A DNA stretch of 64,000 bases from Candidatus Levybacteria bacterium RIFCSPHIGHO2_02_FULL_40_18. GTDB taxonomy: Bacteria; Patescibacteriota; Microgenomatia; Levybacterales; GWA1-39-11. The notes beneath the pieces are model-generated. The model saw only the letters and a list, made by a program, of their open reading frames with translations, ran no database searches and was not told the origin of the DNA. Shown here in pieces: positions 2,319 to 45,879 of the stretch (its first letter is position 1; every line of letters starts with the position of its first letter). The stretch spans positions 32,945 through 96,944 of the forward strand of contig MFOC01000004.1 of the NCBI GenBank assembly GCA_001782235.1. Direction: 5' to 3'. The position numbers and the translations under genes were made by a program.

Positions 2319-2717
2319 ATGTCAGGCGCGAATGAGACATTTTTTACGGTTGTAGGATGCATGGATGGGAGAGTCCAGAAAGCAATTTCAGAATTCGGCC
2401 GAACAAAATTCGGAGCAGAGTATCCTGACACAATTACCGAAGCAGGAATAGCCGGTATAATTGCAAATAACCCCGATCCTAAATTCGTTGAAAATTTAAA
2501 AACAAAACTTCTGGTTTCAATTGAAAAACACCACTCGAAAGGAATTGTTGTCGATGGTCACCAGGAATGCGCCGGAAATCCAGTAGATGATGAGCGCCAC
2601 AAAGAAGATATAAGAAGGTCTATTGAATTTATTCGCAATCTTATCGAAAACAAAATCCCAATCATTGGAGTCTTCGTTGTTAGGAATGACGAATCCTGGC
2701 AAGCCGAGGAAGTTTAG
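2319..2717 (+). CDS. Beta-carbonic-anhydrase-like protein
   Basis: CMDGR and GHQECAG motifs resemble the Cys-x-Asp-x-Arg and His-x-x-Cys zinc ligand motifs of beta-class carbonic anhydrases. The protein is only 132 aa, so the assignment is tentative. Confidence 0.4.
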   Translation: MSGANETFFTVVGCMDGRVQKAISEFGRTKFGAEYPDTITEAGIAGIIANNPDPKFVENLKTKLLVSIEKHHSKGIVVDGHQECAGNPVDDERHKEDIRRSIEFIRNLIENKIPIIGVFVVRNDESWQAEEV

Positions 2718-2851
2718 ATATTGATTTGTCCTCAAACTTCTGCTAAACTACGTTTTATCCTAAGACAGCAAGTGGTGAGTGAAATCGAACCATAAATCTT
2801 GCCGAGGGCCAGTCAGTTTATAAAGTTACAGGTTTGTAAAGTTATAAAGTT

Positions 2852-2873
2852 GCGTCCTCGAGGGCGCTTTTTT
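2852..2873 (+). terminator. Rho-independent terminator-like hairpin + T tract downstream of the dprA/CA-like operon
   Basis: GC-rich palindrome gcgtcctcgagggcgc followed by tttttt. Confidence 0.5.
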
Positions 2874-2938
2874 ATTGCTCCAAATCTTCTTAGGAAAAAA
2901 TATTTTATATTTAATATTTAATTTTTTATATTACTACT

Positions 2939-3460
2939 ATGCCTAGTCAGAGAAACATACAATTACTAGAAGAACTAAAACAAAAGGTTGATAAGGCAGC
3001 CGCTCTGTTTTTTGTTGACTATTCGGGATTAACCCACAGACAGCTTGAAGAGGTAAGACGCGAGCTAAAAGATAATGATTCAGAAATCGGAATTATTAAA
3101 AATACTCTTATGAACCTTGCATTACAAGAAAAGAAAATAGATGCAAAAGACCGTCTTCAGGGTCCATTCGCGACCCTATTTTCCTACGAAGATCCTATTA
3201 AAACCGTTAGGGTTTTGGCGGCTTTTATAAAGAAGTATGGCCTTCCAAAAATCAAATTCGGCTGGTTTGAAAATTCGATAATAGACGAAACCATGATAAC
3301 AAAGCTTGCTACATTGCCATCTCGAGAAATTCTTGTCGCAAAACTCTTGGGGACTTTAAATGCGCCAATCTCAGGTCTCGTTTATACACTAAGTGGAAAT
3401 ATCCAGAAGCTGGCAATGGTGCTAAAGGCAGTCGAAAGTAAGAAGCAGCCAGCTTCGTAA
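2939..3460 (+). CDS. rplJ: 50S ribosomal protein L10
   Basis: Typical L10 N-terminus (NIQLLEELKQKV ... ALFFVDYSGLT). It lies immediately upstream of rplL. Confidence 0.9.
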   Translation: MPSQRNIQLLEELKQKVDKAAALFFVDYSGLTHRQLEEVRRELKDNDSEIGIIKNTLMNLALQEKKIDAKDRLQGPFATLFSYEDPIKTVRVLAAFIKKYGLPKIKFGWFENSIIDETMITKLATLPSREILVAKLLGTLNAPISGLVYTLSGNIQKLAMVLKAVESKKQPAS

Positions 3461-3462
3461 CC

Positions 3463-3590
3463 TAGAAAATAGTTCTTGGAAAATGGAAAATAGTAATGGA
3501 AAGTGGAAACTAGAAAATAGATAAATTAAAACTAATTTCCAATCTCTAATTTCCATACCATTTTCTAATTTCTAATAACCAATTTCTATT
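3463..3590 (+). repeat. MITE-like AT-rich hairpin repeat, copy A (rplJ-rplL spacer)
   Basis: The left arm ctagaaaatagttcttggaaaatggaaaatagtaatggaaagtgg pairs with the right arm ...ctaatttccataccattttctaatttctaataaccaatttctatt. It is homologous to copies at 20628, 34531, 35818 and 40661. Confidence 0.6.
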
Positions 3591-3610
3591 GAACGGGGGT
3601 GAATTAATTT

Positions 3611-4009
3611 ATGGCAAAAGCAACAAAAGATGATTTGTTAAAACAAATTGAAGAAATGTCAGTTCTGGAGGTATCCGAATTAGTCAAGGCGCTTGAGGAG
3701 AAATTCGGCGTGACTGCAGCCGCCCCCGTAGGGGCGAGCCCTGCACAGACTGGTGCTGGGGTAGCACCTGAGGCTGGAGAGCCGGCAGAAGAACAAACCG
3801 TATTTAATGTTTGGATTCAGGCAGCAGGAGATAACAAGCTTTCAGTCATTAAGACTCTCAGGGAATTAGTTCCAACTTTGGGCCTTAAAGAAGCAAAAGA
3901 TTTAGTTGACACCGCTCCAAAAGAGGTAATGACCGCCGTCAACAAGAAAACCGCTGATGAAGCCAAGGAAAAGTTAACAGCAGCAGGCGCAACAGTCGAA
4001 CTCAAATAG
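3611..4009 (+). CDS. rplL: 50S ribosomal protein L7/L12
   Basis: Conserved N-terminal dimerisation helix, an Ala/Pro/Glu-rich hinge and a C-terminal domain ([12 protein letters not shown] ... ATVELK). Confidence 0.92.
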
Positions 4010-4103
4010 TTTCCAGTTTCGAGTCTCCAATTTCCAATTAGTCAACGAGTTGATCAATTGGCAACTGGAAATTGAGCTGTAATCTCGCTATAATACCTAA
4101 ACT

Positions 4104-4394
4104 ATGGCTTTTAAATGTGATAATTGCGGAAGAGGAATTAGGTGGGGGCACCGCGTGTCTCATTCAAAGAGAAGAACTGGTCGTGCCTTCAGACCAAATA
4201 TTCAGAAGAAAACAATCATGATTGACGGCAGATTAATTCATGCCAAACTCTGCACAAACTGCCTCAAAACCCTCAGAAAAGTCAAGAAAGCTCGCTTCGC
4301 GTCGACGAACGACGGCGGGTCGAAGCGGGTGAAAGCTTCGAAAGAATCTCCCGTCCTTCAGGATAGCCGTTTACAAAATCCGACAGCTTCATAA
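4104..4394 (+). CDS. rpmB: 50S ribosomal protein L28 (with C-terminal extension)
   Basis: N-terminus CDNCGRGIRWGHRVSHSKRRTGRAFRPNIQKK matches the L28 family. The 3' ~110 nt overlap the convergent fmt gene. Confidence 0.75.
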   Translation: MAFKCDNCGRGIRWGHRVSHSKRRTGRAFRPNIQKKTIMIDGRLIHAKLCTNCLKTLRKVKKARFASTNDGGSKRVKASKESPVLQDSRLQNPTAS

Positions 4395-5160
4395 CGTTTT
4401 TCCCCTCAACCTGAATTTGGTCGTTTGGCAGCAATTTCGCTATCCGTTTGATGCCGTTTAGTTTTGCCTTGAACCAGACCGCGGGCCATGGATAATATGC
4501 CCGGATCATGCGGTCTAGCTGTTGGCTTTTGGCTGTTGGCTTTTGGCTAATGTCGATAAAACCAGATTCGCGAGTTAGCCTTTTGGTAAACGTCGCTTTC
4601 GAATGATCCTGCTCAATAGGTTTTAATTCTCCCGAAATATACCTCGGCAGAACTTCCGAAAGTAAATCGGCGCCTTTTTCAAACAGCCTTCGATACAAAG
4701 TTTCCGAAGTATCATTGGGTTCGATTTTTTCTTCGACCTTTGCCAACATCGGTCCATGGTCAACTTCTTCATCTAACTTTATGATCGAAACGCCGGTTTT
4801 TGATTCGCCAGCCAAAATTGCGGACTGAACAGGCGTCGGGCCTCGGTATTTAGGGAGAAAAGAAGGGTGGATATTAAGAATTCCAAATTCAAATAAGTTT
4901 AAAATTTCTTTCGGAACAATAAGCCCAAAGAACGCAAGAACCCCAATTTTTGCCCCAATTTTCTTTAGGTCGGTGATAATTCTCCGATCAAATTTGTTGA
5001 TCGAAAAACAGGGAGTGTTGCTCTTATTACAGTATAAAATTAAAGGGGAATTTGGGTCTTTTTCAGTGGTAAAAACTATTAAATCAAATCTGTAACGTAA
5101 AACCTCGACAATCCGTGAAAAGTACGGTCCTGCCCCAAAAAAAACAATTTTTTCTTTCAT
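4282..5160 (-). CDS. fmt: Methionyl-tRNA formyltransferase
   Basis: Formyltransferase N-domain (KIVFFGAGPYF ... NIHPSFLPKYRGPTPVQSAILAGESKTGVSIIKL) plus a C-terminal domain. Confidence 0.85.
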   Translation of the reverse strand: MKEKIVFFGAGPYFSRIVEVLRYRFDLIVFTTEKDPNSPLILYCNKSNTPCFSINKFDRRIITDLKKIGAKIGVLAFFGLIVPKEILNLFEFGILNIHPSFLPKYRGPTPVQSAILAGESKTGVSIIKLDEEVDHGPMLAKVEEKIEPNDTSETLYRRLFEKGADLLSEVLPRYISGELKPIEQDHSKATFTKRLTRESGFIDISQKPTAKSQQLDRMIRAYYPWPAVWFKAKLNGIKRIAKLLPNDQIQVEGKNVMKLSDFVNGYPEGREILSKLSPASTRRRSSTRSELS

Positions 5161-5260
5161 AATGATATTATACAGGAGAAATTAAACGCGGGCGGAGTTT
5201 TTCAGCAATACATCCTATAGGGTTTGAAATGATCCGGCGTTTGAGGTAGAATATTGTTGT

Positions 5261-6412
5261 ATGACAAGTCGAGTGGAAGGACAAAGACCAACCGTACGGG
5301 AAGGCCAAATTGTGGCCAAAGCAAAGGACATAAGGGGAGAGATGCGGACTGCCCCCGTTCTAATAATTGCCGAAAATCCCGCCATGCACGAGGCTGTTAA
5401 GCCACATCCGGAGCTGGTCGAGGGTGAGGGAAGACTGAAAGTGGGTCCTTTATACGGGACAGTTTGGGTAACGACGTACCACCAGCCAAGTGAACGCAGA
5501 CTTCAAACAATGACAGGTAAGGACATCATTGGTCGCATAGGGGAAGGAGAGCCCAAAACCGTTAGAGCGCTGAGATGGAACCATTGTCAGGATATAGAAA
5601 CGGCTTTTCGTTTTATGGGTCATGTTGGTGAAGTGTACGACAGAAGAGATGGAAAAGAAGTGCAAAAAACAAAAAGGGCAATTGGCGCGATGAAGCGCAT
5701 TATCCGTGATTTTCGAAGTGAAGAGACCATGACGCAGGAGAGACTTGATAGCTTGCGCGAAGCAACCGTTAGCGATCTTGCCCAAGCGGGCTTTTACAAT
5801 GCAAGAAAAGAGGTAAAGAAACAAATTGCATCTCAAGGTACACTTGCTTCAGGCCGTGACAGCGAAGGCAGGATTAATGACTTAGTTTCAAGATCTAGAG
5901 CGGCCTCAGCATGGCTGAAGGCAATACACGAGCTTATGTTTGCAGGGCAAGTCCGTGAGAAATTTCCATATCTTCGGGACCTGGTTTTGCTTGAACGTGC
6001 CAGAGAGCGTCTTGATCTTGAGTTTGCTGTAAGAATAATAGACAATGTTTTAAGGCTTGGTAACAACAACCGAGACATTTCCAGGACCTTGTCCTCAGTC
6101 GCACATTTTAGCAGAAGAAACCTTACATCAAACAGGCCGAAGGCAAACCCCTATAAAGGGCCTGCAGTTATTGCTCACGTTAGCCTTTTTGGTTCAAGGC
6201 ACGAGGGCACGGTGAGAATACTCGAAGCATATCTGGGAGAGGAGCGCGCACGACAAATGTTGTCAGTGCCATCAATTATTGCCGTTTACCGTGACACAAC
6301 AAGAAGTGCGATGGGCAGGTGGGAGGAAATAAGCGAGAGGTTGAGTGCGGCAAGAAGCGAACTGGCCCTGGCGCTTGAAGTGGGCGATGACGGCCTTGTG
6401 GAGGCTGCCTAA
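5261..6412 (+). CDS. Hypothetical Arg-rich protein encoded by a GC-rich (~53%) ORF
   Basis: 383-aa uninterrupted ORF with composition clearly different from its ~38% GC neighbours. I recognise no conserved motif. It sits between fmt and def on the opposite strand. Confidence 0.4.
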   Translation: MTSRVEGQRPTVREGQIVAKAKDIRGEMRTAPVLIIAENPAMHEAVKPHPELVEGEGRLKVGPLYGTVWVTTYHQPSERRLQTMTGKDIIGRIGEGEPKTVRALRWNHCQDIETAFRFMGHVGEVYDRRDGKEVQKTKRAIGAMKRIIRDFRSEETMTQERLDSLREATVSDLAQAGFYNARKEVKKQIASQGTLASGRDSEGRINDLVSRSRAASAWLKAIHELMFAGQVREKFPYLRDLVLLERARERLDLEFAVRIIDNVLRLGNNNRDISRTLSSVAHFSRRNLTSNRPKANPYKGPAVIAHVSLFGSRHEGTVRILEAYLGEERARQMLSVPSIIAVYRDTTRSAMGRWEEISERLSAARSELALALEVGDDGLVEAA

Positions 6413-6415
6413 ATC

Positions 6416-7030
6416 TTATACTTCGATCTCTTCAAATTCATCTTCTCCTGCGGCGTTTTTGTAGGAGCGGTAGAGTTGCTCTTTTTGTTCAAGAACATGT
6501 TTTGTAAAGAGGATTCCATTGAGGTGGTCAAGCTCATGCTGGATTATTGTTGAATCAAACCCACTAAAGTTTTGGATGTTTTCCTTACCCGCAACATCCT
6601 GATATCGTAACTTGATCTCCTTTTTTCTTGCAACATTTCCCCAAATATTTGGTACAGAAAGGCAGCCTTCAAGAAGCCTTTTTTTTGATTTTGCAGGCTT
6701 TTTAGCCTCAATTTTCTTGGAATTGGTAAATGACGGTACTTTTTTCTCGCCCGATGACGTGATAATTTCAGGATTTATGAAAGTAAGTATTTTGCCGTTC
6801 TCCTGCGGTCTTGCAATAAACATTCGTTTGAAGATCCCAACTTGTGGTGCGGCAAGGCCAACGCCAACTGGATCACGCGTTGCCGAAAGAGTTTTTTTCA
6901 TCTTAGAAATTTCTTTCGCAAGTTTTCTATCGAAGAGAGTCACCGGCGATGATTTTTCAAGAAGCTTTGAGTTTGGAGTAACCAAAATTTTAAACATGGG
7001 TAAATTATAACAGAATACAATTCGGTTCAA
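6416..7030 (-). CDS. def: Peptide deformylase (with Lys-rich insertion)
   Basis: All three Def motifs are present: GVGLAAPQVG, EGCLSVP and HELDHLNG. The start is probably the internal Met (MFKILV). A ~25-aa Lys-rich insert precedes the EGCLS motif. Confidence 0.85.
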   Translation of the reverse strand: MNRIVFCYNLPMFKILVTPNSKLLEKSSPVTLFDRKLAKEISKMKKTLSATRDPVGVGLAAPQVGIFKRMFIARPQENGKILTFINPEIITSSGEKKVPSFTNSKKIEAKKPAKSKKRLLEGCLSVPNIWGNVARKKEIKLRYQDVAGKENIQNFSGFDSTIIQHELDHLNGILFTKHVLEQKEQLYRSYKNAAGEDEFEEIEV

Positions 7031-7141
7031 TAATTTTCATGCAAATTTCATGCGAATCTAAATACTGTTAATGTATGCGAATAATTATTAGTATAAATTC
7101 GTACTAATTAAATTCGAATGTATTCGTATAAGAAGTAATAC

Positions 7142-12115: not shown

Positions 12116-12470
12116 ATAGAGACTGATTTGGAAGATCGCGGTACATTTGAGGATGACAGCTAATGACACGTTCATAATTACAATTTCCTTCAAATTTTAG
12201 GGACAAATTTTTTGCCCCGTAGCAATCTCCCGAAATCACTCATTTAAAGTTCGCTCTTTAAAAATTATTGTTCAGAAAACAAGACAATCGCAAAGATTGG
12301 ATTTCTTTGGAGTTTTGTTTTTGTTGGACAAACCATAAAGTTGTTCAGATAGTGGTAGGATCTTTTTCGAACATTTTTGTTCGAGAATTTTCTTTGACAG
12401 AGTACATTTTTTTGCCAGGTACCATTCGGTACCTGACTGCAAAAATTTTGACTCCGTCAAAATTTTTTTG

Positions 12471-14066
<1,596 letters not shown>

Positions 14067-15983: not shown

Positions 15984-16055
15984 GATCCGGTGGCGAAGTG
16001 GTAACGCGGGGGTCTGCAAAACCTCTATGCGAGGGTTCGATTCCCTTCCGGATCT
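15984..16055 (+). tRNA. tRNA-Cys (GCA)
   Basis: Cloverleaf folded by hand. Acceptor GATCCGG/CCGGATC, anticodon stem GGGGT/ACCTC with loop CTGCAAA, T-arm GAGGG-TTCGATT-CCCTT, and U73 discriminator. Confidence 0.8.
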
Positions 16056-16080
16056 CAAAATTTGTTAAAATATGTAGTTC

Positions 16081-16124
16081 GGGCAACTAGTTCATCGGTT
16101 AGAACGGTCGCCTAAGGCGACAGG
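16081..16124 (+). pseudogene. Truncated tRNA-like sequence (5' half only: acceptor strand, D-arm, hairpin), abutting the GIY-YIG ORF
   Basis: GGGCAAC-TA-GTTC-ATCGGTTA-GAAC-G-GTCGCCTAAGGCGAC has an Asp/Arg-like D-arm but no T-arm or 3' acceptor strand. The 3' portion is replaced by the GTG start of the GIY-YIG ORF. Confidence 0.4.
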
Positions 16125-16127
16125 CGC

Positions 16128-16373
16128 GTGATTAAATATTTTGTATATGTTTTGAGAAGCGAAGTAAATGGCCGACTCTATACTGGATCAGCCGTTGATC
16201 CGGACTTAAGACTTGAGCAACATAATACGGGTAAAAGTAAATATACAAAATCAACGCGACCATTTAAATTAGTCTACAAGGAGGAATATAATACTAGATC
16301 GGATGCGGTTCGAAGAGAAAGATTTCTGAAGACAGGAAAAGGAAGAGAGTTTTTAAAGAAAAAATTGGGGTGA
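16128..16373 (+). CDS. GIY-YIG nuclease family protein (UPF0213/YhbQ-like), paralog of 14249..14524
   Basis: YFVYVLRSEVNGRLYTGSAVDPDLRLEQHN. It has a GTG start, and its stop overlaps the first bases of tRNA-Ile. Confidence 0.7.
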   Translation: MIKYFVYVLRSEVNGRLYTGSAVDPDLRLEQHNTGKSKYTKSTRPFKLVYKEEYNTRSDAVRRERFLKTGKGREFLKKKLG

Positions 16374-16440
16374 TTGGCTCAGTGGTAGAGCGCGTTCCTG
16401 ATAAGAACGAGGTCGATGGTTCGATCCCATCATCACCCAC
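16368..16440 (+). tRNA. tRNA-Ile (GAT)
   Basis: Acceptor GGGTGAT/ATCACCC, D-arm GCTC-AGTGGTA-GAGC, anticodon stem CGTTC/GAACG with loop CTGATAA, T-arm GATGG-TTCGATC-CCATC, and A73. Confidence 0.8.
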
Positions 16441-20627: not shown

Positions 20628-20763
20628 CTAGAAAATAGTTATTGGAAAATGGAAATTAGTAATGGAAAATAGAGAATAGAAAATAGTTAATAATTAATAT
20701 ATTGCCAATTTATAATATCTAATTTCCATAACCATTATCCAATTACTAATAACCAATTTCTAT
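20628..20763 (+). repeat. MITE-like AT-rich hairpin repeat, copy B (ends at the thyA start codon)
   Basis: ctagaaaatagttattggaaaatggaaattagtaatggaaaatag ... taatttccataaccattatccaattactaataaccaatttctATG. Confidence 0.6.
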
Positions 20764-34485: not shown

Positions 34486-34530
34486 TACATCGAATTATAC
34501 CATCCCCTTCGGTTAAAATTCTAAGCACGA

Positions 34531-34672
34531 AATCCTAAATTCTAAACAATATTAACTAATAGACAATGGTTGTTAGAAAATAGAAAATGGTAATGGAAAA
34601 TAGAGAATGGAAAATGGAATAGTATTGTTTCCAATTACCAATTTCTATTACTGGTATTTGTTTAGGATTTCG
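34531..34672 (+). repeat. MITE-like AT-rich hairpin repeat, copy C (with terminal inverted repeats AAATCCTAAA...TTTAGGATTT)
   Basis: aatcctaaattctaaacaatattaactaatagacaatggttgttagaaaatagaaaatggtaatggaaaatagagaatggaaaatggaatagtattgtttccaattaccaatttctattactggtatttgtttaggattt. Its exact reverse complement is at 40661..40802. Confidence 0.65.
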
Positions 34673-34690
34673 ATATTCGAATTTCGGATT

Positions 34691-35809
34691 TTAGAGTCTG
34701 GCGGGGTTTATTCGTAGGATTTTGTCGTTGCCTTGGCGCACGGTTCCCCTGCCGTCGCGGTTGCTTGTTGTCACATAGAGCATACCGTCTGGTCCCAAAA
34801 CTACTTCCCGCAGCCTTCCATACTCGTTTTTAAAATGTTCGACCAATTTTTGTTCGCTTATTTTATATTCATAAAGCGCAGATCCCCTAAGCCCTGCAAA
34901 GAATATCGAGCCATTAAAATATGCCGTTCCGGCCGGTGCCCAAGTATCGCCTGATCCAGAATTAATAATTGGTGTTATTAAGCCTGATCGCGTTTCGACT
35001 CCCTGAATTTCAGGCCATCCGTAGTTTTTTCCAGCCTGGATCAGGTTAAGTTCGTCGAGTCCGCCCGGTGATCTTCCATGTTCTGTTGACCACAATTGAC
35101 CATTGTCATCCCAAGTAATTCCTTGAGGATTACGGTGTCCGTATGAGTAAATTATAGTATCAAATGGGTTACTTGGTCCTCTATTTCCATCTCTTGTAAC
35201 ACGCAGGATTTTTCCCGCAAAAGAATTCCTATCCTGCGCTAGAGATGGTTGCTGAGCATCTCCTGTAGTTATATATAGAAGCCCATCAGGGCCGAATTTT
35301 ATCCGGCCCCCATCGTGATTTGGCGCTCCCGGAATTTGGCCGACGATTATTTTTTCTTCCAAAAGTTTCTCTCCCTCAAACTTATATCGAACAACACGGT
35401 TTAGAGTGTTGCTGCCCGAGGATCGGTAGGTATAATAGAGGTAGATATTTTTATTAGTTTCAAAATTGGGATCAACGGCCACCCCGTGAAGTCCGCTTTC
35501 TGAGACTTGATGAACGGGAATTGTTGCGATTGGGTCGGATACGTTCCCGTTTGTATCAACCAGGCGAACACGTCCCGGCCGTTCGGTGACAAGCATTCGG
35601 CCATCAGGAAGAAAAGCCATTGCCCACGGCACTTCAAGATTCTCCGAAAGGATAGAAACAGTTTGGGCTTCACGCTCCGAAGGAGTGATAGTATCCGAAG
35701 GCTGCAAAATTCGGGACTCGGGGGGCCTGATTAGAACGATTGCTACCAGAAGCAAAACAAAGATACCAAGCCCGACTATTATTTTTGTCATAGTTTTGAT
35801 ATTATACAT
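34691..35809 (-). CDS. Soluble PQQ-dependent sugar (glucose/sorbosone) dehydrogenase-family beta-propeller protein
   Basis: LEVPWAMAFLPDGRMLVTERPGRVRLV ... HDGGRIKFGPDGLLYITTGD ... EHGRSPGGLDELN are typical sGDH/Ylil-family blades. It has an N-terminal TM anchor. Confidence 0.8.
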   Translation of the reverse strand: MYNIKTMTKIIVGLGIFVLLLVAIVLIRPPESRILQPSDTITPSEREAQTVSILSENLEVPWAMAFLPDGRMLVTERPGRVRLVDTNGNVSDPIATIPVHQVSESGLHGVAVDPNFETNKNIYLYYTYRSSGSNTLNRVVRYKFEGEKLLEEKIIVGQIPGAPNHDGGRIKFGPDGLLYITTGDAQQPSLAQDRNSFAGKILRVTRDGNRGPSNPFDTIIYSYGHRNPQGITWDDNGQLWSTEHGRSPGGLDELNLIQAGKNYGWPEIQGVETRSGLITPIINSGSGDTWAPAGTAYFNGSIFFAGLRGSALYEYKISEQKLVEHFKNEYGRLREVVLGPDGMLYVTTSNRDGRGTVRQGNDKILRINPARL

Positions 35810-35817
35810 TAGAAAAT

Positions 35818-35940
35818 AGTTATTGGAAAATGGAAATTAGTAATGGAATGTGGAAAATAGAAAATGGATATTAAAATACTAATTTCTAATATCTAATTTC
35901 CGAACCATTTTCTAATTTCGAATAACTAATTTCTTATTTC
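35818..35940 (+). repeat. MITE-like AT-rich hairpin repeat, copy D (immediately upstream of the cupredoxin RBS)
   Basis: ttagaaaatagttattggaaaatggaaattagtaatggaatgtggaaaatagaaaatgg ... ctaatttccgaaccattttctaatttcgaataactaatttc. Confidence 0.6.
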
Positions 35941-40283: not shown

Positions 40284-40610
40284 ATGGTTAAGAGTTCCAT
40301 GTTTCTTAGTGAGGTTTTTCATTCTCTGTCTGATCCAACAAGAAGGAAAATTCTTGAAGGATTAAGTAAGCGTCCTCTGACCGTTTCTGAGATTAAGGCT
40401 CCTTTTAGAATATCGCTTGTTGCCATTTCAAAACATTTAAAAGTTTTGGAGCGTGCAAAACTTATTCGCCGCCAGAAAATGGGGAGAGAGCATATGATTC
40501 GTCTTCATCCCCAGCCGCTTCGCGATGCTCATCGCTATATAGAAAGTTTTAAAAAAGACTGGAGCCGCCAACTAGACGCCCTTGAGAAATTCCTCGAACG
40601 CAATACTTAA
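40284..40610 (+). CDS. ArsR/SmtB-family transcriptional regulator
   Basis: LSDPTRRKILEGL ... LTVSEIKAPFRISLVAISKHLKVLERAKLI is a winged HTH of the ArsR type. Confidence 0.8.
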   Translation: MVKSSMFLSEVFHSLSDPTRRKILEGLSKRPLTVSEIKAPFRISLVAISKHLKVLERAKLIRRQKMGREHMIRLHPQPLRDAHRYIESFKKDWSRQLDALEKFLERNT

Positions 40611-40637
40611 AACACGAAAAACAAAATCCTAAACCCT

Positions 40638-40656
40638 AATATCCCTCCGGGCCGGA
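40638..40656. repeat. GC-rich palindromic short repeat (CCTCCGGGCCGGAGG) adjacent to MITE copy E
   Basis: ccctccgggccggagg shares the GGCCCGGAGGG / CCCTCCGGGCC core with repeats at 345-395, 45262-45335 and 47353-47398. Confidence 0.5.
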
Positions 40657-40660
40657 GGCT

Positions 40661-40802
40661 AAATCCTAAACAAATACCAGTAATAGAAATTGGTAATTGG
40701 AAACAATACTATTCCATTTTCCATTCTCTATTTTCCATTACCATTTTCTATTTTCTAACAACCATTGTCTATTAGTTAATATTGTTTAGAATTTAGGATT
40801 TC
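40661..40802 (-). repeat. MITE-like AT-rich hairpin repeat, copy E (exact inverted copy of copy C)
   Basis: The reverse complement of 40661..40802 matches 34531..34672 base for base in my comparison. Confidence 0.65.
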
Positions 40803-42026
40803 GTGCTTCGAATTTGGGAGTGGGTGTATAATGGATTTATTATGAAAAAGGGGGTTGCCACATTTACGCTGGATCACGGAAGGTGCCCGCCATGGCTGTT
40901 TAATCGAATGGTGAATTTAGGGCGGGAGATGACTCGGGTTTTGATCGAGGAATATGGTCCTGATGAATTTGTTGAACGAATCTCAGATCCGGTTTGGTTT
41001 CAATCATTAGGTACCGTTCTCGCCTTTGATTGGAACGCATCCGGACTTACAACAATCTTGACCGCCGCGTTAAAAGAGGCGATTCGTGGGCAAGAAAGGC
41101 AATTCGGAATCTTTATTTGTGGAGGAAAGGGCGGAACTTCAAGAAAAACTCCGGATCAAATTCAATTTTGGGGAGAAAGAATCAGTCTACCGGAGAAATC
41201 AACTGAACAGTTAATTACAAACTCCAAAATGTCAGCAAAAGTTGATTCGGCCCTCGTTCAAGATGGATACACACTTTATCACCACGCGTTTTTCTTTTCA
41301 AAAAATGGCGCATGGGCGGTAGTACAGCAGGGAATGAATACTAATGCGAAGTCTGCAAGGAGATATCATTGGTTCGACAGGTTAACAACTGACAATGGAC
41401 AACTGACAACTGACAATGAAACAATCGATTTCGTAAATGAGCCGCATAAAGCGATTTCTGCACAGACTCGGCATGCAAATGTTCTAAATTTAGTCGCCGG
41501 CAAGAGTTCTAAAACTCGCGAAACTTCGGTTGATCTAATTCGCGAAGGTTATAAAAGGGTGAAAAGCGATCTTGAGCTGCTTCGTAAACATTCAAATGAA
41601 ATGTCAAAAGTGGTCGCTTTTAGTCAGGATGGGGAGGAGTATATTGCCATGGAGCTTTCTCGAAATGATTTCTTTCATCATCCGGTTGAATTAGAAAATT
41701 TTGCTAACTCTAAATATCTGGATCGAATTTTGCAGAAACTTTCGGATAGAAAGCCCGAGGACTACAAATCGCTAGTTTCATTCCAGGGGGTAGGTCCAAA
41801 GACGGTTCGTGCGCTCTCTTTAGTCTCGGAAATAATTTACGGTGCAATGCCTTCCTATATAGATCCGGCACGATATTCATTTGCCCACGGCGGAAAAGAC
41901 GCAATACCGTATCCTGTGGATCGAGAAACCTATGACAAAACAATCGAAATTATGCGAAAAGCAGTAAATCGTTCGCGCATCCCATTCACTGACAAGCAAA
42001 AAGCCCTACGCCGCCTCGCGGCGTAA
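40803..42026 (+). CDS. Hypothetical protein, DUF763-like
   Basis: 407 aa. The N-terminal GVATFTLDHGRCPPWLFNRMVNLGREMTRVLIEEYGPDEF resembles DUF763 family members as I recall them. The start may be the internal MKKG. It contains a small in-frame tandem repeat (LTTDNGQLTTDNE). Confidence 0.35.
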   Translation: MLRIWEWVYNGFIMKKGVATFTLDHGRCPPWLFNRMVNLGREMTRVLIEEYGPDEFVERISDPVWFQSLGTVLAFDWNASGLTTILTAALKEAIRGQERQFGIFICGGKGGTSRKTPDQIQFWGERISLPEKSTEQLITNSKMSAKVDSALVQDGYTLYHHAFFFSKNGAWAVVQQGMNTNAKSARRYHWFDRLTTDNGQLTTDNETIDFVNEPHKAISAQTRHANVLNLVAGKSSKTRETSVDLIREGYKRVKSDLELLRKHSNEMSKVVAFSQDGEEYIAMELSRNDFFHHPVELENFANSKYLDRILQKLSDRKPEDYKSLVSFQGVGPKTVRALSLVSEIIYGAMPSYIDPARYSFAHGGKDAIPYPVDRETYDKTIEIMRKAVNRSRIPFTDKQKALRRLAA

Positions 42027-42068
42027 TACTACAAATGCCACAAATACTACCAATACTACAAATATTTC
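42024..42068. repeat. Left arm of the inverted repeat flanking the four-helix-bundle gene
   Basis: aatactacaaatgccacaaatactaccaatactacaaat. Its reverse complement (gtagtattggtagtatt) recurs at 42431..42478. Confidence 0.5.
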
Positions 42069-42069
42069 A

Positions 42070-42423
42070 ATGAAAACCTACGACATTCATGAAAGGATTT
42101 ATAAATTTACTGTTCGAGTAATAGTTCTAGTTAATAAACTTCCTAAAACTCCATCAAATCTTGTAATTATTACCCAAATCTTAAGGTCTGTTACATCTAT
42201 GGGAGCAAATGATCAAGAAGCAGATGGGACTTTAACAAAGAAAGACTTTATCAATAAATTTGGAATCGTCAGAAAAGAGAATAAAGAAACTAACTTTTGG
42301 TTAAGATTAATTGCTGATACTAATTCGAAGGAAATTGAAAAAGAAGCTATAGAAATCTTAGCTGAAGGAAAAGAGCTGGTTGCCATAATAAGTTCTATAT
42401 TAAACAAAACTCGAAAGAAATGA
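42070..42423 (+). CDS. Four-helix-bundle protein of the '23S rRNA intervening-sequence protein' family
   Basis: ERIYKFTVRVIVLVNKLPKT ... ITQILRSVTSMGANDQEA ... KKDFINKFGIVRKENKETNFWLRLI matches the family pattern (ExxYxF ... LPK ... QxxRS ... SIGANIAEA ... ETxYWL). Confidence 0.7.
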   Translation: MKTYDIHERIYKFTVRVIVLVNKLPKTPSNLVIITQILRSVTSMGANDQEADGTLTKKDFINKFGIVRKENKETNFWLRLIADTNSKEIEKEAIEILAEGKELVAIISSILNKTRKK

Positions 42424-42430
42424 TTGAACT

Positions 42431-42478
42431 ATTGGTGCGCATTGGTAGTATTGGTACTGTATTGGTAGTATTAATTGG
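42431..42478. repeat. Right arm of the inverted repeat flanking the four-helix-bundle gene
   Basis: attggtgcgcattggtagtattggtactgtattggtagtattaattgg. Confidence 0.5.
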
Positions 42479-42500
42479 TCTTGACAAGCAATAATGGTTT

Positions 42501-42713
42501 GTGTCTATACTTGAGTATATGGCAAAAAGGGCCAGAGGGAGCGCAAAAAGGAGAAGGGCAACAATTCACAGAAAACCTGATAGCTATCTTGTAATATATA
42601 AAGTTTCCATATTCGCGGCACTTGTCATCGTATTGGTAGCATTTTTAATGGCGCTTTTTACACCGCTTGTTTCAAATACAGTTAGCGTCCTTGGGATTTT
42701 CACCAGCAGATAG
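42501..42713 (+). CDS. Small hypothetical membrane protein
   Basis: 70 aa with a basic N-terminus and one TM helix. Confidence 0.3.
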   Translation: MSILEYMAKRARGSAKRRRATIHRKPDSYLVIYKVSIFAALVIVLVAFLMALFTPLVSNTVSVLGIFTSR

Positions 42714-45003: not shown

Positions 45004-45879
45004 ATGAGCATTAGCGAGAGGATAAATATTCTTAAAAAGTTCAAAAACCTTACTTATCCTATTTTGACTATTTACTTAAGTTTTTTGGGATCAAAAACCC
45101 CTAGCACGAGCGAGTTAAAAAGGCAATTTCATTCCCTTATGACTCAAAATTTAACAGCGCGAGAGAAGAAGCACTTCGGAAATACCATCCAAAGCATTGA
45201 TGATTATTTTGATGAAACTTACGATAGCCGGGGGAAGAGAAGCGTTGCTTTTTTTGGCAACGGACAACGGCCCGGCCTCCGCCCAGAGGGCTCTGGCCCG
45301 GCGGGAGGGGCGTCTGGCCCGGAGGGCGGGCTATTTGAGATTTTAGAATTTGAATTTCCAATCGCGCCTTTGTGTCGTATCTCAAATTCTGTTTTTCTTG
45401 ATCCGATAACCTCAGCGCTCTTAGAACATAAAAGATATTTAGTACTTCTCATCGATAGGGAAAAAACAAGGCTATTCACTGTTCATTTAGGAGAAATCAA
45501 AGAGCATGAGGATGTATTTATAAATATTGTTCCTCAAAAAGTTAGAGCAGATGAAGAGCATTTTTATGGGAGGAGCGACAAAATTTTCCGGCATACTGAA
45601 GATCATTTAAATCGGCACCTTAGGCTTGTTGCTGAAAAGGCACGGGAATTTATGAAAGGCAAAAGAATTAATTTTATTATTCTCGGTGGACATGAAGAAT
45701 TGTTCGAGAAGATGAAGAGACATTTACGCAAGGACATAAGAGATAAAATCGCGGGCGAATTTGTCACGGAACTCAATGTTCCAATAAACAGCGTGTATCT
45801 TGCAAGTAAAAAAATAGCAAAGCACATAGAACAAGATAAGGTCTATGCGGAGATGGAGTCGTCATTGGCAGGGGTATGA
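45004..45879 (+). CDS. Hypothetical protein, possibly eRF1/Pelota-like (bacterial 'host-attachment/baeRF' type). Contains an in-frame GC-rich repeat insert
   Basis: VLLIDREKTRLFTVHLGEIKE ... FIILGGHEELFEKMKRHL is reminiscent of baeRF-family proteins. The assignment is from memory only. Residues GQRPGLRPEGSGPAGGASGPEGG are encoded by the GC-rich repeat at 45262..45335. Confidence 0.3.
   Translation: MSISERINILKKFKNLTYPILTIYLSFLGSKTPSTSELKRQFHSLMTQNLTAREKKHFGNTIQSIDDYFDETYDSRGKRSVAFFGNGQRPGLRPEGSGPAGGASGPEGGLFEILEFEFPIAPLCRISNSVFLDPITSALLEHKRYLVLLIDREKTRLFTVHLGEIKEHEDVFINIVPQKVRADEEHFYGRSDKIFRHTEDHLNRHLRLVAEKAREFMKGKRINFIILGGHEELFEKMKRHLRKDIRDKIAGEFVTELNVPINSVYLASKKIAKHIEQDKVYAEMESSLAGV
45262..45335. 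repeat. GC-rich palindromic short repeat (two tandem units) inside the ORF 45004..45879
   Basis: ggcccggcctccgcccagagggctctggcccggcgggaggggcgtctggcccggagggcggg. Confidence 0.5.

Follow-up and report, generated by a model that had tools for sequence, protein, structure and literature searches.

Introduction

Intervening sequences (IVSs) of rRNA genes have been known since 1990, as have heptamer repeats of the short tandemly repeated repetitive (STRR) type, and the IVS protein family has been known since 1993; to our knowledge, the function or origin of each of them is still unexplained. The present work concerns a gene of this four-helix-bundle (4HB) protein family which, together with the inverted repeats on its two sides, forms a cassette between protein-coding genes. 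It lies in a stretch of 64,000 nucleotides, hereafter the window, from a Candidatus Levybacteria genome, a member of the candidate phyla radiation (CPR)/Patescibacteria. An earlier reading of the window, the original prediction, had likened the gene and its repeats to the ribosomal IVSs that are excised by RNase III.

In Coxiella, the IVS occupies helix 45 and is 428 nt long; RNase III cuts within its stem of 28 bp, and tandem GACAGAT heptamers precede the ATG of the S23p gene (PMC4990558). In CPR bacteria, 23S_rRNA_IVP open reading frames (ORFs) are located inside insertions of 16S and 23S genes, and known IVS sites are occupied by short non-intron insertions (bioRxiv 10.1101/2024.02.27.582315). 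Proteins of the PF05635/TIGR02436 (S23p) family share the conserved motif RxxxSxxxNxxE, and IVP genes have also been noted within cas loci (PMC3936711). The diversity-generating retroelement (DGR) protein Avd forms a pentamer; each of its five protomers touches an RNA stem-loop, and crevices between the protomers accommodate flipped-out bases (bioRxiv 10.1101/2023.10.23.563531).

Hairpins built from tandem heptamers have been described from several other bacteria. In cyanobacteria, STRR heptamer hairpins are found between operon genes such as hupS and hupL, where they were proposed to stabilise transcripts or to couple translation (PMC2670836), and STRR heptamers occur inside the cyanobacterial RNase P RNA gene according to a citation of Vioque 1997 in PMC7593598. 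In Geobacter metallireducens, operon genes (proB/proA) have between them pairs of sites in inverted orientation, each made of five tandem heptamers and spaced by about 100 nt, which were ascribed to unknown global regulators (PMC2700814), and Beggiatoaceae carry TAACTGA heptamers upstream of start codons (PMC4679880). A gene working together with dispersed palindromes is the subject of the REPIN/RAYT concept, as outlined in PMC3337134 and PMC3116915. We found no paper linking 4HB genes to flanking tandem-unit arrays, and none on free-standing cassettes of this architecture with insertion polymorphism.

Here we compare the cassette of the window with about 170 related loci, which are metagenome-assembled genomes or metagenome contigs, the distant homologues being plasmid-borne. 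We describe a filled and an empty site in two sister genomes, the hairpin formed by the repeats, the protein, the occurrence of the same architecture throughout the gene family, and hairpins of the same units which lack an ORF and some of which occupy helices of 23S rRNA.

Results

Insertion of the cassette and its reciprocal absence in a sister genome

The DUF763 gene immediately upstream of the cassette has its closest relative (88% amino acid identity) on a 55-kb JGI contig, where the upstream ArsR gene and the downstream small ORF are the same as in the window. Alignment of the two loci (window versus L087/L086) gives a clean pair of sites, the sister contig reading GCCGCCTC-A-CTTGACAAG and the window GCCGCCTC-(42018-42479)-CTTGACAAG. 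At the empty junction, GCCGCCTCACTTGACAAG, the DUF763 stop codon directly adjoins CTTGACAAG; in the window the insert supplies the last two codons of DUF763 together with a TAA stop, which changes the end of the protein from ALRRLT to ALRRLAA. At another place, this JGI contig has a cassette of 86-87% identity, the end of which is 3 nt upstream of the folA ATG; at the corresponding thyA/folA junction the window reads thyA-TAG-C-ATG-folA, without a cassette. Judged by these alignments, the cassette is an insertion, with presence and absence reciprocal between sister genomes. A third close copy (91% amino acid identity) is located between a TPR gene and an unrelated gene. The free-standing mobile cassette that the original prediction had considered is thus borne out by a clean empty site and by a related cassette elsewhere.

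Concerning the limits of the cassette, its 5' arm is identical to those of L001 and L005 at 46/46 and 46/47 positions, respectively, and the 3' arms of the three are 92-96% identical, while their ORFs are only 82-84% identical and the sequence outside the arms is at random level. Because the arms are near-identical in three copies and the outside sequence is random, the alignments place the conserved cassette at about 42024-42473 and indicate a tighter constraint on the arms than on the coding sequence. No target-site duplication was detected at the filled/empty pair and no consistent flanking repeat across the junctions; many arrays begin at a TAA stop codon, and the flanks are otherwise variable. 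Synonymous divergence (pS) of host genes between the two genomes is 0.68-0.83 as against 0.56 for the cassette ORF, which is compatible with a later exchange of the cassette but is not proof of it.

The cassette does not lie in any rRNA helix, and the only rRNA gene of the window is a 16S gene at 12464-14045, as expected from the claim that the element is located outside rRNA genes. The Crp-family gene, which had been named as its downstream neighbour, starts 470 nt downstream, past two small ORFs. The region is AT-rich (GC 0.36).

The repeat arms and the hairpin

The units of both arms (Table 1) have the general form AATACTAC[C/A]. In the 5' arm their order is AATACTACA AATGCCACA AATACTACC AATACTACA AATATTTCA, and the next AAT overlaps the start codon; the reverse complement of the 3' arm reads AATACTACC AATACAGTACC AATACTACC AATGCGCACC AATAGTTCA. 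A 14-mer motif has eight matches in the window versus 0.4 expected, a 20-fold enrichment over shuffles, and six of the eight are in or beside this locus. The upstream 17-mer quoted in the original prediction was found exactly at 42043-42059, whereas the downstream 17-mer is not contiguous as quoted, though ATTGGTAGTATT occurs twice, at 42441-42452 and 42461-42472.

Pairing between the arms comprises 44 base pairs, three of them G-U, from 42018:42479 to 42071:42423 (dG -36.6 kcal/mol, z -5.4 versus shuffles), and the arms are paired in both the minimum free energy and the centroid structure of the whole cassette. With its innermost pairs at the AUG and the stop codon, the inter-arm helix encloses the ORF, in accordance with the proposed position of the gene in the loop of an inverted-repeat stem. 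Motif enrichment, duplex energies and z-scores together exclude that the repeats are merely low-complexity AT-rich sequence with no stable stem. A consensus scan revealed no promoter-like site in the 5' arm. Over the cassettes compared, the arm duplex of the sense strand is more stable than that of the antisense strand (Wilcoxon p=0.007; difference 1.6 kcal/mol); being small and significant for cassettes only, this asymmetry was not accepted as proof of selection at the RNA level.

Table 1. Coordinates of the cassette and its junctions in the window
Feature	Position	Strand or place	Description and basis
Inserted segment	42018..42479	+	462 bp in window versus single A in sister genome; alignment with L087/L086
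5' arm	42024..42069	+	Tandem array of five AAT-anchored units of ~9 nt, reaching the start codon (AAT/G); left cassette boundary
4HB protein gene	42070..42423	+	117 aa, pI 9.6; PF05635, TIGR02436, 2RLD profile, AlphaFold 2, Foldseek, dN/dS
3' arm	42424..42473	+	Five inverted units directly after the stop codon (TGA/TT); right cassette boundary
Extra inserted bases	42474..42479	+	Six bases between 3' arm and host sequence; not common to L001 or L005
GC hairpin GCCGC-CTC-GCGGC	42010..42022	left junction	+ strand; RNA fold, first 13 nt paired

The GC hairpin of the left junction is composed of host DUF763 sequence in its 5' half and of inserted DNA (42018-42022) in its 3' half. It was scored terminator-like on the minus strand and is missing from the empty site in L087. 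GC stems beside ORF-less AATACTACC hairpins are mostly helices of the host rRNA (L111, L141, L143, L178), and the one in L160 is situated just 3' of a 23S gene; a further stem of this kind is found in L169.

One further copy of a unit pair, with one mismatch (AATGCTACCAATAC), is found at 42630-42643 (-), about 160 nt 3' of the cassette and inside a conserved small membrane-protein ORF (42501-42713), where the sister genome reads GTGATCGGAGCGTT. A back-of-the-envelope figure of about 0.02 expected per window makes a chance occurrence unlikely.

The four-helix-bundle protein

PF05635 (E=6e-14; 52.6 bits, cut-off 33.8), TIGR02436 'four helix bundle protein' (71.4 bits, cut-off 24) and the AlphaFold 2 monomer model (four helices at residues 6-22, 28-52, 57-84 and 87-116; pLDDT 96.2) all agree with the predicted four-helix-bundle gene. 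The product also matches the profile of the solved BT_0352 structure 2RLD (E=4.7e-19), and a protein of a Levybacteria MAG of the RIFCSPHIGHO2_02_FULL series is 100% identical to it. The closest folds found by Foldseek are 2RLD, whose PDB sequence file lists five chains, and Xcc0516 (2GSC), with a TM score of 0.79 each, and Avd (4DWL/8UB7). The family motif is kept as RSVTSMGANDQE at residues 39-50 (R39-S43-N47-E50). S43, N47 and E50 are invariant in 36 homologues and R39 is replaced by K in three sequences, and many charged residues of the family alignment are likewise invariant.

Among the window, L001 and L005 the ORF is under purifying selection, with a dN/dS of 0.04-0.07 at a pS of 0.52-0.60. 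By this pattern of substitutions the cassette protein is functional, and since purifying selection on the ORF is so strong, the original prediction chose the wrong word when it spoke of a possible remnant. A family-alignment scan of IMG/VR gave no relative on viral carriers, and searches of PHROGs and PADLOC gave no match for the protein.

The 5' arm contains an out-of-frame upstream ATG which opens an upstream ORF of 12 codons (42036-42073), the TGA of which overlaps the main start codon (ATGA). It is present in L001 too; in L005, an indel of 1 nt brings the upstream ATG in frame, and gene callers lengthen the protein accordingly (MHTNTTNTTNISM...). Because an upstream ATG can fall in frame in this way, the N/T-rich N-terminal extensions of many 4HB database entries are spurious or optional. 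Coding sequence as the primary nature of the 5' array was considered, as the array is in frame and many gene calls begin inside it (MSNTTN...). Unit lengths of 7-11 nt within the family, and an upstream ATG that is not in frame either in the window or in L001, led us to reject it.

The same architecture across the gene family

The architecture of the window recurs throughout its family. A scan with one genome per species yielded 79 loci of this CPR subfamily (46-76% identity), almost all of which have arrays of AAT-anchored 7-11-nt units before the ORF and inverted arrays after it. Even though the unit sequence varies by lineage (AATACTACC, AATTTCA, AATAAACA/AATAACCC, AATAAGC, AATCAACT, AATCCGACC), it is common to both arms of one cassette. 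For 82 CPR loci the mean energy of the arm duplex is -33.2 kcal/mol; shuffled sequences gave -18.7 and a control in direct orientation -9.7. Inverted arrays with z<-3 accompany 72% of the 4HB genes of these loci and 6% of 167 other genes of the same loci (p=4e-27). The number of AAT anchors in an arm has its peak at 5-6 among the CPR loci, and cyanobacterial homologues have 4 to 12 units.

Neighbouring genes in the CPR loci are mostly co-oriented with the cassette (62/78 upstream, 58/78 downstream), and 70/156 neighbour proteins are singletons. Some sites are used repeatedly. In ten loci belonging to different classes the cassette is directly upstream of an mreB homologue (L007, L014, L015, L017, L025, L032, L036, L040, L046, L055), and in an eleventh, L049, the mreB homologue is upstream of the cassette; a promoter-like TTGGCA...TAGAAT site precedes the cassette in those mreB loci that were read (L007, L014, L032, L036). 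Junctions of dcd, tmk, thyA and folA are recurrent sites too, three cassettes are located before dnaX, and the end of a ybeY-like gene is upstream in two of these three (L009, L062).

Several CPR genomes carry two or more cassettes (JACOYD01, CAZWMJ01, CAYZZG01, JACQKO01, JAMCXO01), and L042 has two 4HB genes (motif at 313 and 3130) in cassettes within 3 kb of each other. One repeat flavour for each cassette of a genome was considered but is not supported, the arrays being mosaics which share units such as AATACTACC and AATAAACA.

Distant homologues (37-45% identity) are found on plasmids of Nostoc, Planktothrix, Euhalothece, Aulosira, Gloeocapsa, Anabaena, Bernardetia (Bacteroidota) and Chlorohelix (Chloroflexota). 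Inverted heptamer arrays abut the ORF in 11 of 12 such plasmid-borne homologues from cyanobacteria, Bacteroidota and Chloroflexota; examples are AATTCGT, four times on each side and abutting ATG and stop, AATCCCC/AATCGTA, CAGTGAC repeated 12 times, AATTCAA and TGATTAG. The AATCCCC arrays, whose unit we take to be that of STRR1, bracket a Planktothrix 4HB gene.

On plasmids of Anabaena and Nostoc (L090, L095) the 4HB gene separates cas2 from cas1 and is encoded on the strand opposite to theirs. A cassette between DUF1156 and Swt1-HEPN occurs in two phyla (L092, L100) and another between a methyltransferase gene and recF, while in L101, outside the array analysis, an unannotated homologous stretch is found between hsdS and hsdR. 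Such wedging inside defence operons may explain earlier reports of IVP genes as 'cas-associated'. In L092 (Chlorohelix plasmid NZ_CP128402.1), a direct repeat of about 72 nt, comprising upstream spacer and 5' array, stands on both sides of the 4HB gene (1201-1569), which gives the downstream Swt1-HEPN gene the same leader. It resembles what a single-crossover (Campbell-type) integration, or a duplication, would leave behind.

Hairpins without an open reading frame and rRNA intervening sequences

A metagenome scan for AATACTACMAAT, at most 61 nt, and then ATTKGTAGTATT retrieved at least 120 stretches, that is at least 120 ORF-less hairpins built from the unit AATACTACC of the window. Many of those listed correspond to the cassette minus its ORF; in L150, for instance, the units AATACTACC, AATACTACA, AATGCCACA, AATACTACA and AATATTTCA are followed by ATG-AAT-CAT-TGA and then by inverted units. 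Among the matches listed, 78/82 hairpins lie in intergenic spacers at a distance of 17-30 nt from the adjacent genes, which in most cases point in the same direction. No other cargo between arrays was found in 80 hairpin loci, a weak test as these loci had been chosen for short hairpins.

At least six hairpins of AATACTAC[C/A] units are inside 23S rRNA genes (L143 and five other genes or fragments), and one is in a 23S-5S spacer. The 23S gene of L143 is 4.6 kb long (2448-7037) and bears two of these hairpins, exactly at the apex of helix 25 (model 572-595) and of helix 45 (1206-1226), the classical IVS sites. In sequence, the units of the cassette arms are thus identical to those of bona fide helix-25 and helix-45 IVS hairpins of CPR 23S rRNA. 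This identity and the similar layout of the Coxiella IVS (PMC4990558) lend substance to the IVS-like nature proposed for the locus. In L161, fragments of 16S rRNA are broken by large insertions, with a match to a group II intron domain.

The 16S gene of the window itself has 111 nt inserted in helix 6 (12542-12653), where the Rfam model has 3 nt. The insertion folds into a hairpin of -45.3 kcal/mol (z -7.8) from 8-nt AAT units (AATTCAAC, AGTTAACC, AATTAACA, AATTTACC, AATTAACT ...) and follows the grammar of the cassette arms, an IVS-like element that lacks an ORF.

Four ORF-less palindromes of ~7-nt units fill intergenic spacers of the window; none of the ORF-less hairpins within these 64 kb has the cassette's own unit. 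Two of them, at 20629-20762 and 35795-35935, are copies of about 134 nt with ~85% identity. The former (z -4.0) fills the entire dcd/thyA spacer from the dcd stop (20626) to the thyA ATG, a junction which holds a 4HB cassette in other CPR genomes (L012, L016, L043, L050). The second family comprises 34516-34684 and 40610-40815, the latter in the ArsR/DUF763 spacer and adjoining the locus. In the sister genome this junction is occupied by a palindrome that is shorter and made of other units (L087 3398-3500; GTTAAA/TTTAAC), which indicates that spacer elements turn over quickly.

Other genes of the window

The 16S gene is not adjoined by a 23S gene in the window, i.e. the rRNA genes are unlinked, and two tRNA genes (15984-16439) are located about 2 kb 3' of it. 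The comparison with rRNA IVSs therefore draws on this 16S gene and on 23S genes of metagenomes. At 45004-45879, a gene of the bacterial archaeo-eukaryotic release factor family 10 (baeRF) adjoins a UPF0047 gene. The block from Crp to baeRF is missing from the sister contig between the small ORF and a bPH_2 gene.

Discussion

The locus connects the 4HB protein family with two other phenomena, the intervening sequences of rRNA and the intergenic hairpins made of tandem repeats. Gene and repeats are one sharply bounded unit which is gained and lost between sister genomes, and the same units build true 23S IVSs. We consider it probable, at roughly 60%, that this unit is a cassette of about 450 bp of the IVS class residing outside rRNA, which is read through, whose arms pair and are cut by RNase III, and whose protein binds the arrays or the hairpin. 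Its anatomy is five AAT-N6 units, the 4HB ORF and five inverted units, with the arrays abutting start and stop codons. Inserted at the very 3' end of DUF763 and giving this gene its new stop, the cassette would most likely be transcribed by read-through from DUF763, since a consensus scan finds no promoter belonging to it and cassettes usually share the orientation of their neighbours. In the transcript, a helix of about 44 bp between the two arrays would enclose the whole ORF and sequester the AUG. By analogy with the release of an IVS from 23S rRNA, RNase III may then cut this helix and free the ORF RNA from the host message. The basic protein, a member of a pentamer-forming family, would bind the repeat arrays or the hairpin and thereby control its own expression and/or the upkeep and spread of the cassette and its ORF-less relatives. 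That the arms are so extremely conserved in sequence points to a sequence-specific partner, for which the encoded basic protein is the obvious candidate; such a partnership may serve autoregulation, RNA protection or propagation at the DNA level in the manner of REPINs and RAYTs.

Several points weigh against this reading. Four of its steps are inferred: co-transcription, cutting by RNase III, recognition of the repeats by the protein, and the way in which the cassette was inserted. A cut in the stem would, moreover, leave the ORF message with a lost or damaged 5' end. The strand asymmetry of the arm duplexes is small and for ORF-less hairpins not significant (p=0.10), so that the arms can equally well be described as inverted repeats at the DNA level. 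Many mismatches between the arms are A/C transversions (CAAAT versus CCAAT) rather than wobble pairs, and the unit order of the two arms is not strictly mirrored. As the number of units per arm ranges from about 4 to 12 across the family, a model of one unit per protomer is weakened, and 'five units for five protomers' is kept as speculation only. For Coxiella, S23p was judged probably untranslated and its ORF reported as decaying (PMC4990558). Furthermore, the three closest cassettes are old (pS>0.5) and no recent transposition was caught, which is why movement is deduced from reciprocal presence and absence. No movement enzyme was found in the cassette, in the Pfam-scanned ORFs of the window (36.4-47.4 kb) or in the few loci with precomputed Pfam rows.

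The arms could also be recognition sites of a protein that acts in trans and mainly on DNA, propagating or maintaining dispersed ORF-less hairpins, its own gene being flanked by cognate repeats as RAYT genes are by REPs. This explanation, which overlaps with the IVS-class cassette, is possible, though we lean against it. A gene between inverted copies of a repeat that is also abundant as ORF-less palindromes, arms more conserved than the coding sequence, as expected of a recognition sequence, several cassettes per genome, and a protein under strong purifying selection with many invariant charged residues would all fit. The protein, however, is a four-helix bundle only, with no recognisable nuclease or recombinase fold or motif; no ORF-less hairpin with the cassette's own unit is found inside the 64-kb window, and unit flavours form mosaics among the cassettes of one genome instead of one per gene. 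Alternatively, the element could be no selfish entity at all but a device of the host, an inter-cistron processing or stability hairpin combined with an autoregulated RNA-binding 4HB protein. The recurrence of the same junctions in distant lineages (promoter, cassette and mreB in 10 loci; dcd, tmk, thyA and folA; dnaX), a dN/dS of ~0.05 and the transcript-stabilising or translation-coupling role proposed for STRR hairpins (PMC2670836) speak for it. Nevertheless, we regard it as unlikely, given that contexts are otherwise very varied (singletons among the neighbour proteins; in other phyla cas2/cas1 with the 4HB gene on the opposite strand, hsdS/hsdR and DUF1156/Swt1), that the same kind of element enters rRNA helices, and that each of the two sister genomes has a cassette where the other has none.

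An ordinary DNA transposon or MITE (a miniature transposable element with inverted repeats), with the arrays as terminal inverted repeats for a transposase encoded elsewhere and the 4HB gene as a passenger, would account for sharp-bounded terminal inverted repeats, insertion polymorphism and abundant ORF-less derivatives. It is made very improbable by the missing target-site duplication, at the filled/empty pair as well as across junctions, by the lack of a transposase associated with any locus examined, and by the occurrence of the same 'cargo' family with arrays of completely different unit sequences in at least four phyla, which argues for a functional tie between protein and repeats rather than hitch-hiking. 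Chance low-complexity sequence, or the decayed avd gene of a DGR, can hardly be entertained. The region is AT-rich and Avd is a structural relative, but the conservation seen in more than 90 loci speaks against this reading, together with the enrichment of the motif and the z-scores of the duplexes; among the Pfam-examined ORFs of 36.4-47.4 kb there is no reverse transcriptase, and the direct repeats nearby are short units only.

Returning to the IVS-class cassette, the formerly vague tie, a protein first seen inside IVSs, becomes a set of questions on the binding of pentamers to arrays, on RNase III and on hairpin copy number in relation to 4HB genes. It also calls for caution, as 4HB genes within cas, restriction-modification or housekeeping operons should not be read as functional members of these operons. 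A wider conjecture, which we put forward tentatively and rather doubt in its full extent, is that TIGR02436/PF05635 proteins are the missing partner of widespread tandem-unit palindromes, i.e. IVSs, STRR sequences, the paired sites of Geobacter and the operon hairpins of CPR bacteria. Gene-bearing copies would then be autonomous and hairpins non-autonomous elements, with the pentamer recognising the units and driving their spread or maintenance without a known transposase fold.

Compared with transposons with terminal inverted repeats and MITEs, the cassette shares these repeats and the presence/absence polymorphism, while neither a target-site duplication nor, in the cassette, the Pfam-scanned ORFs of 36.4-47.4 kb and the few loci with precomputed Pfam rows, a cognate transposase was found. 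It resembles REPIN-RAYT systems in that a small conserved gene is flanked by an inverted repeat which is also dispersed, here in metagenomes, as ORF-less palindromes. RAYTs, in contrast, are homologues of HUH/Y1 transposases, whereas the 4HB protein is a four-helix bundle with no known catalytic motif, and REPs are GC-rich single palindromes, whereas the arrays of the window are AT-rich tandem units; we know of no REPINs within rRNA helices. Avd has the same fold, belongs to the same superfamily and is likewise basic and pentameric, binding an RNA stem-loop encoded beside its own gene, but sequence identity is only ~15%, and at the window locus neither a reverse transcriptase (ORFs of 36.4-47.4 kb) nor a template/variable repeat was found. 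The STRR sequences of cyanobacteria and the paired sites of Geobacter are inverted 7-nt tandem arrays that likewise stand as hairpins between operon genes. They were described without an associated gene and read as regulator sites or stabilisers, while here an ORF of one family occupies the loop. Units measure 9-11 nt in the window cassette and 7-8 nt in related CPR cassettes, and cyanobacterial 4HB genes have true heptamers including AATCCCC. From the ORF-bearing 23S IVSs of Coxiella burnetii (helix 45) and Leptospira, with their S23p/IVP genes, the cassette differs by its position between protein-coding genes, by an ORF under strong purifying selection, and by an RNase III excision that is shown there and inferred here. 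With these IVSs it shares the protein family, a sporadic distribution and the placement of the ORF in the stem loop of terminal inverted repeats, and with that of Coxiella, moreover, the short tandem repeats right before the start codon.

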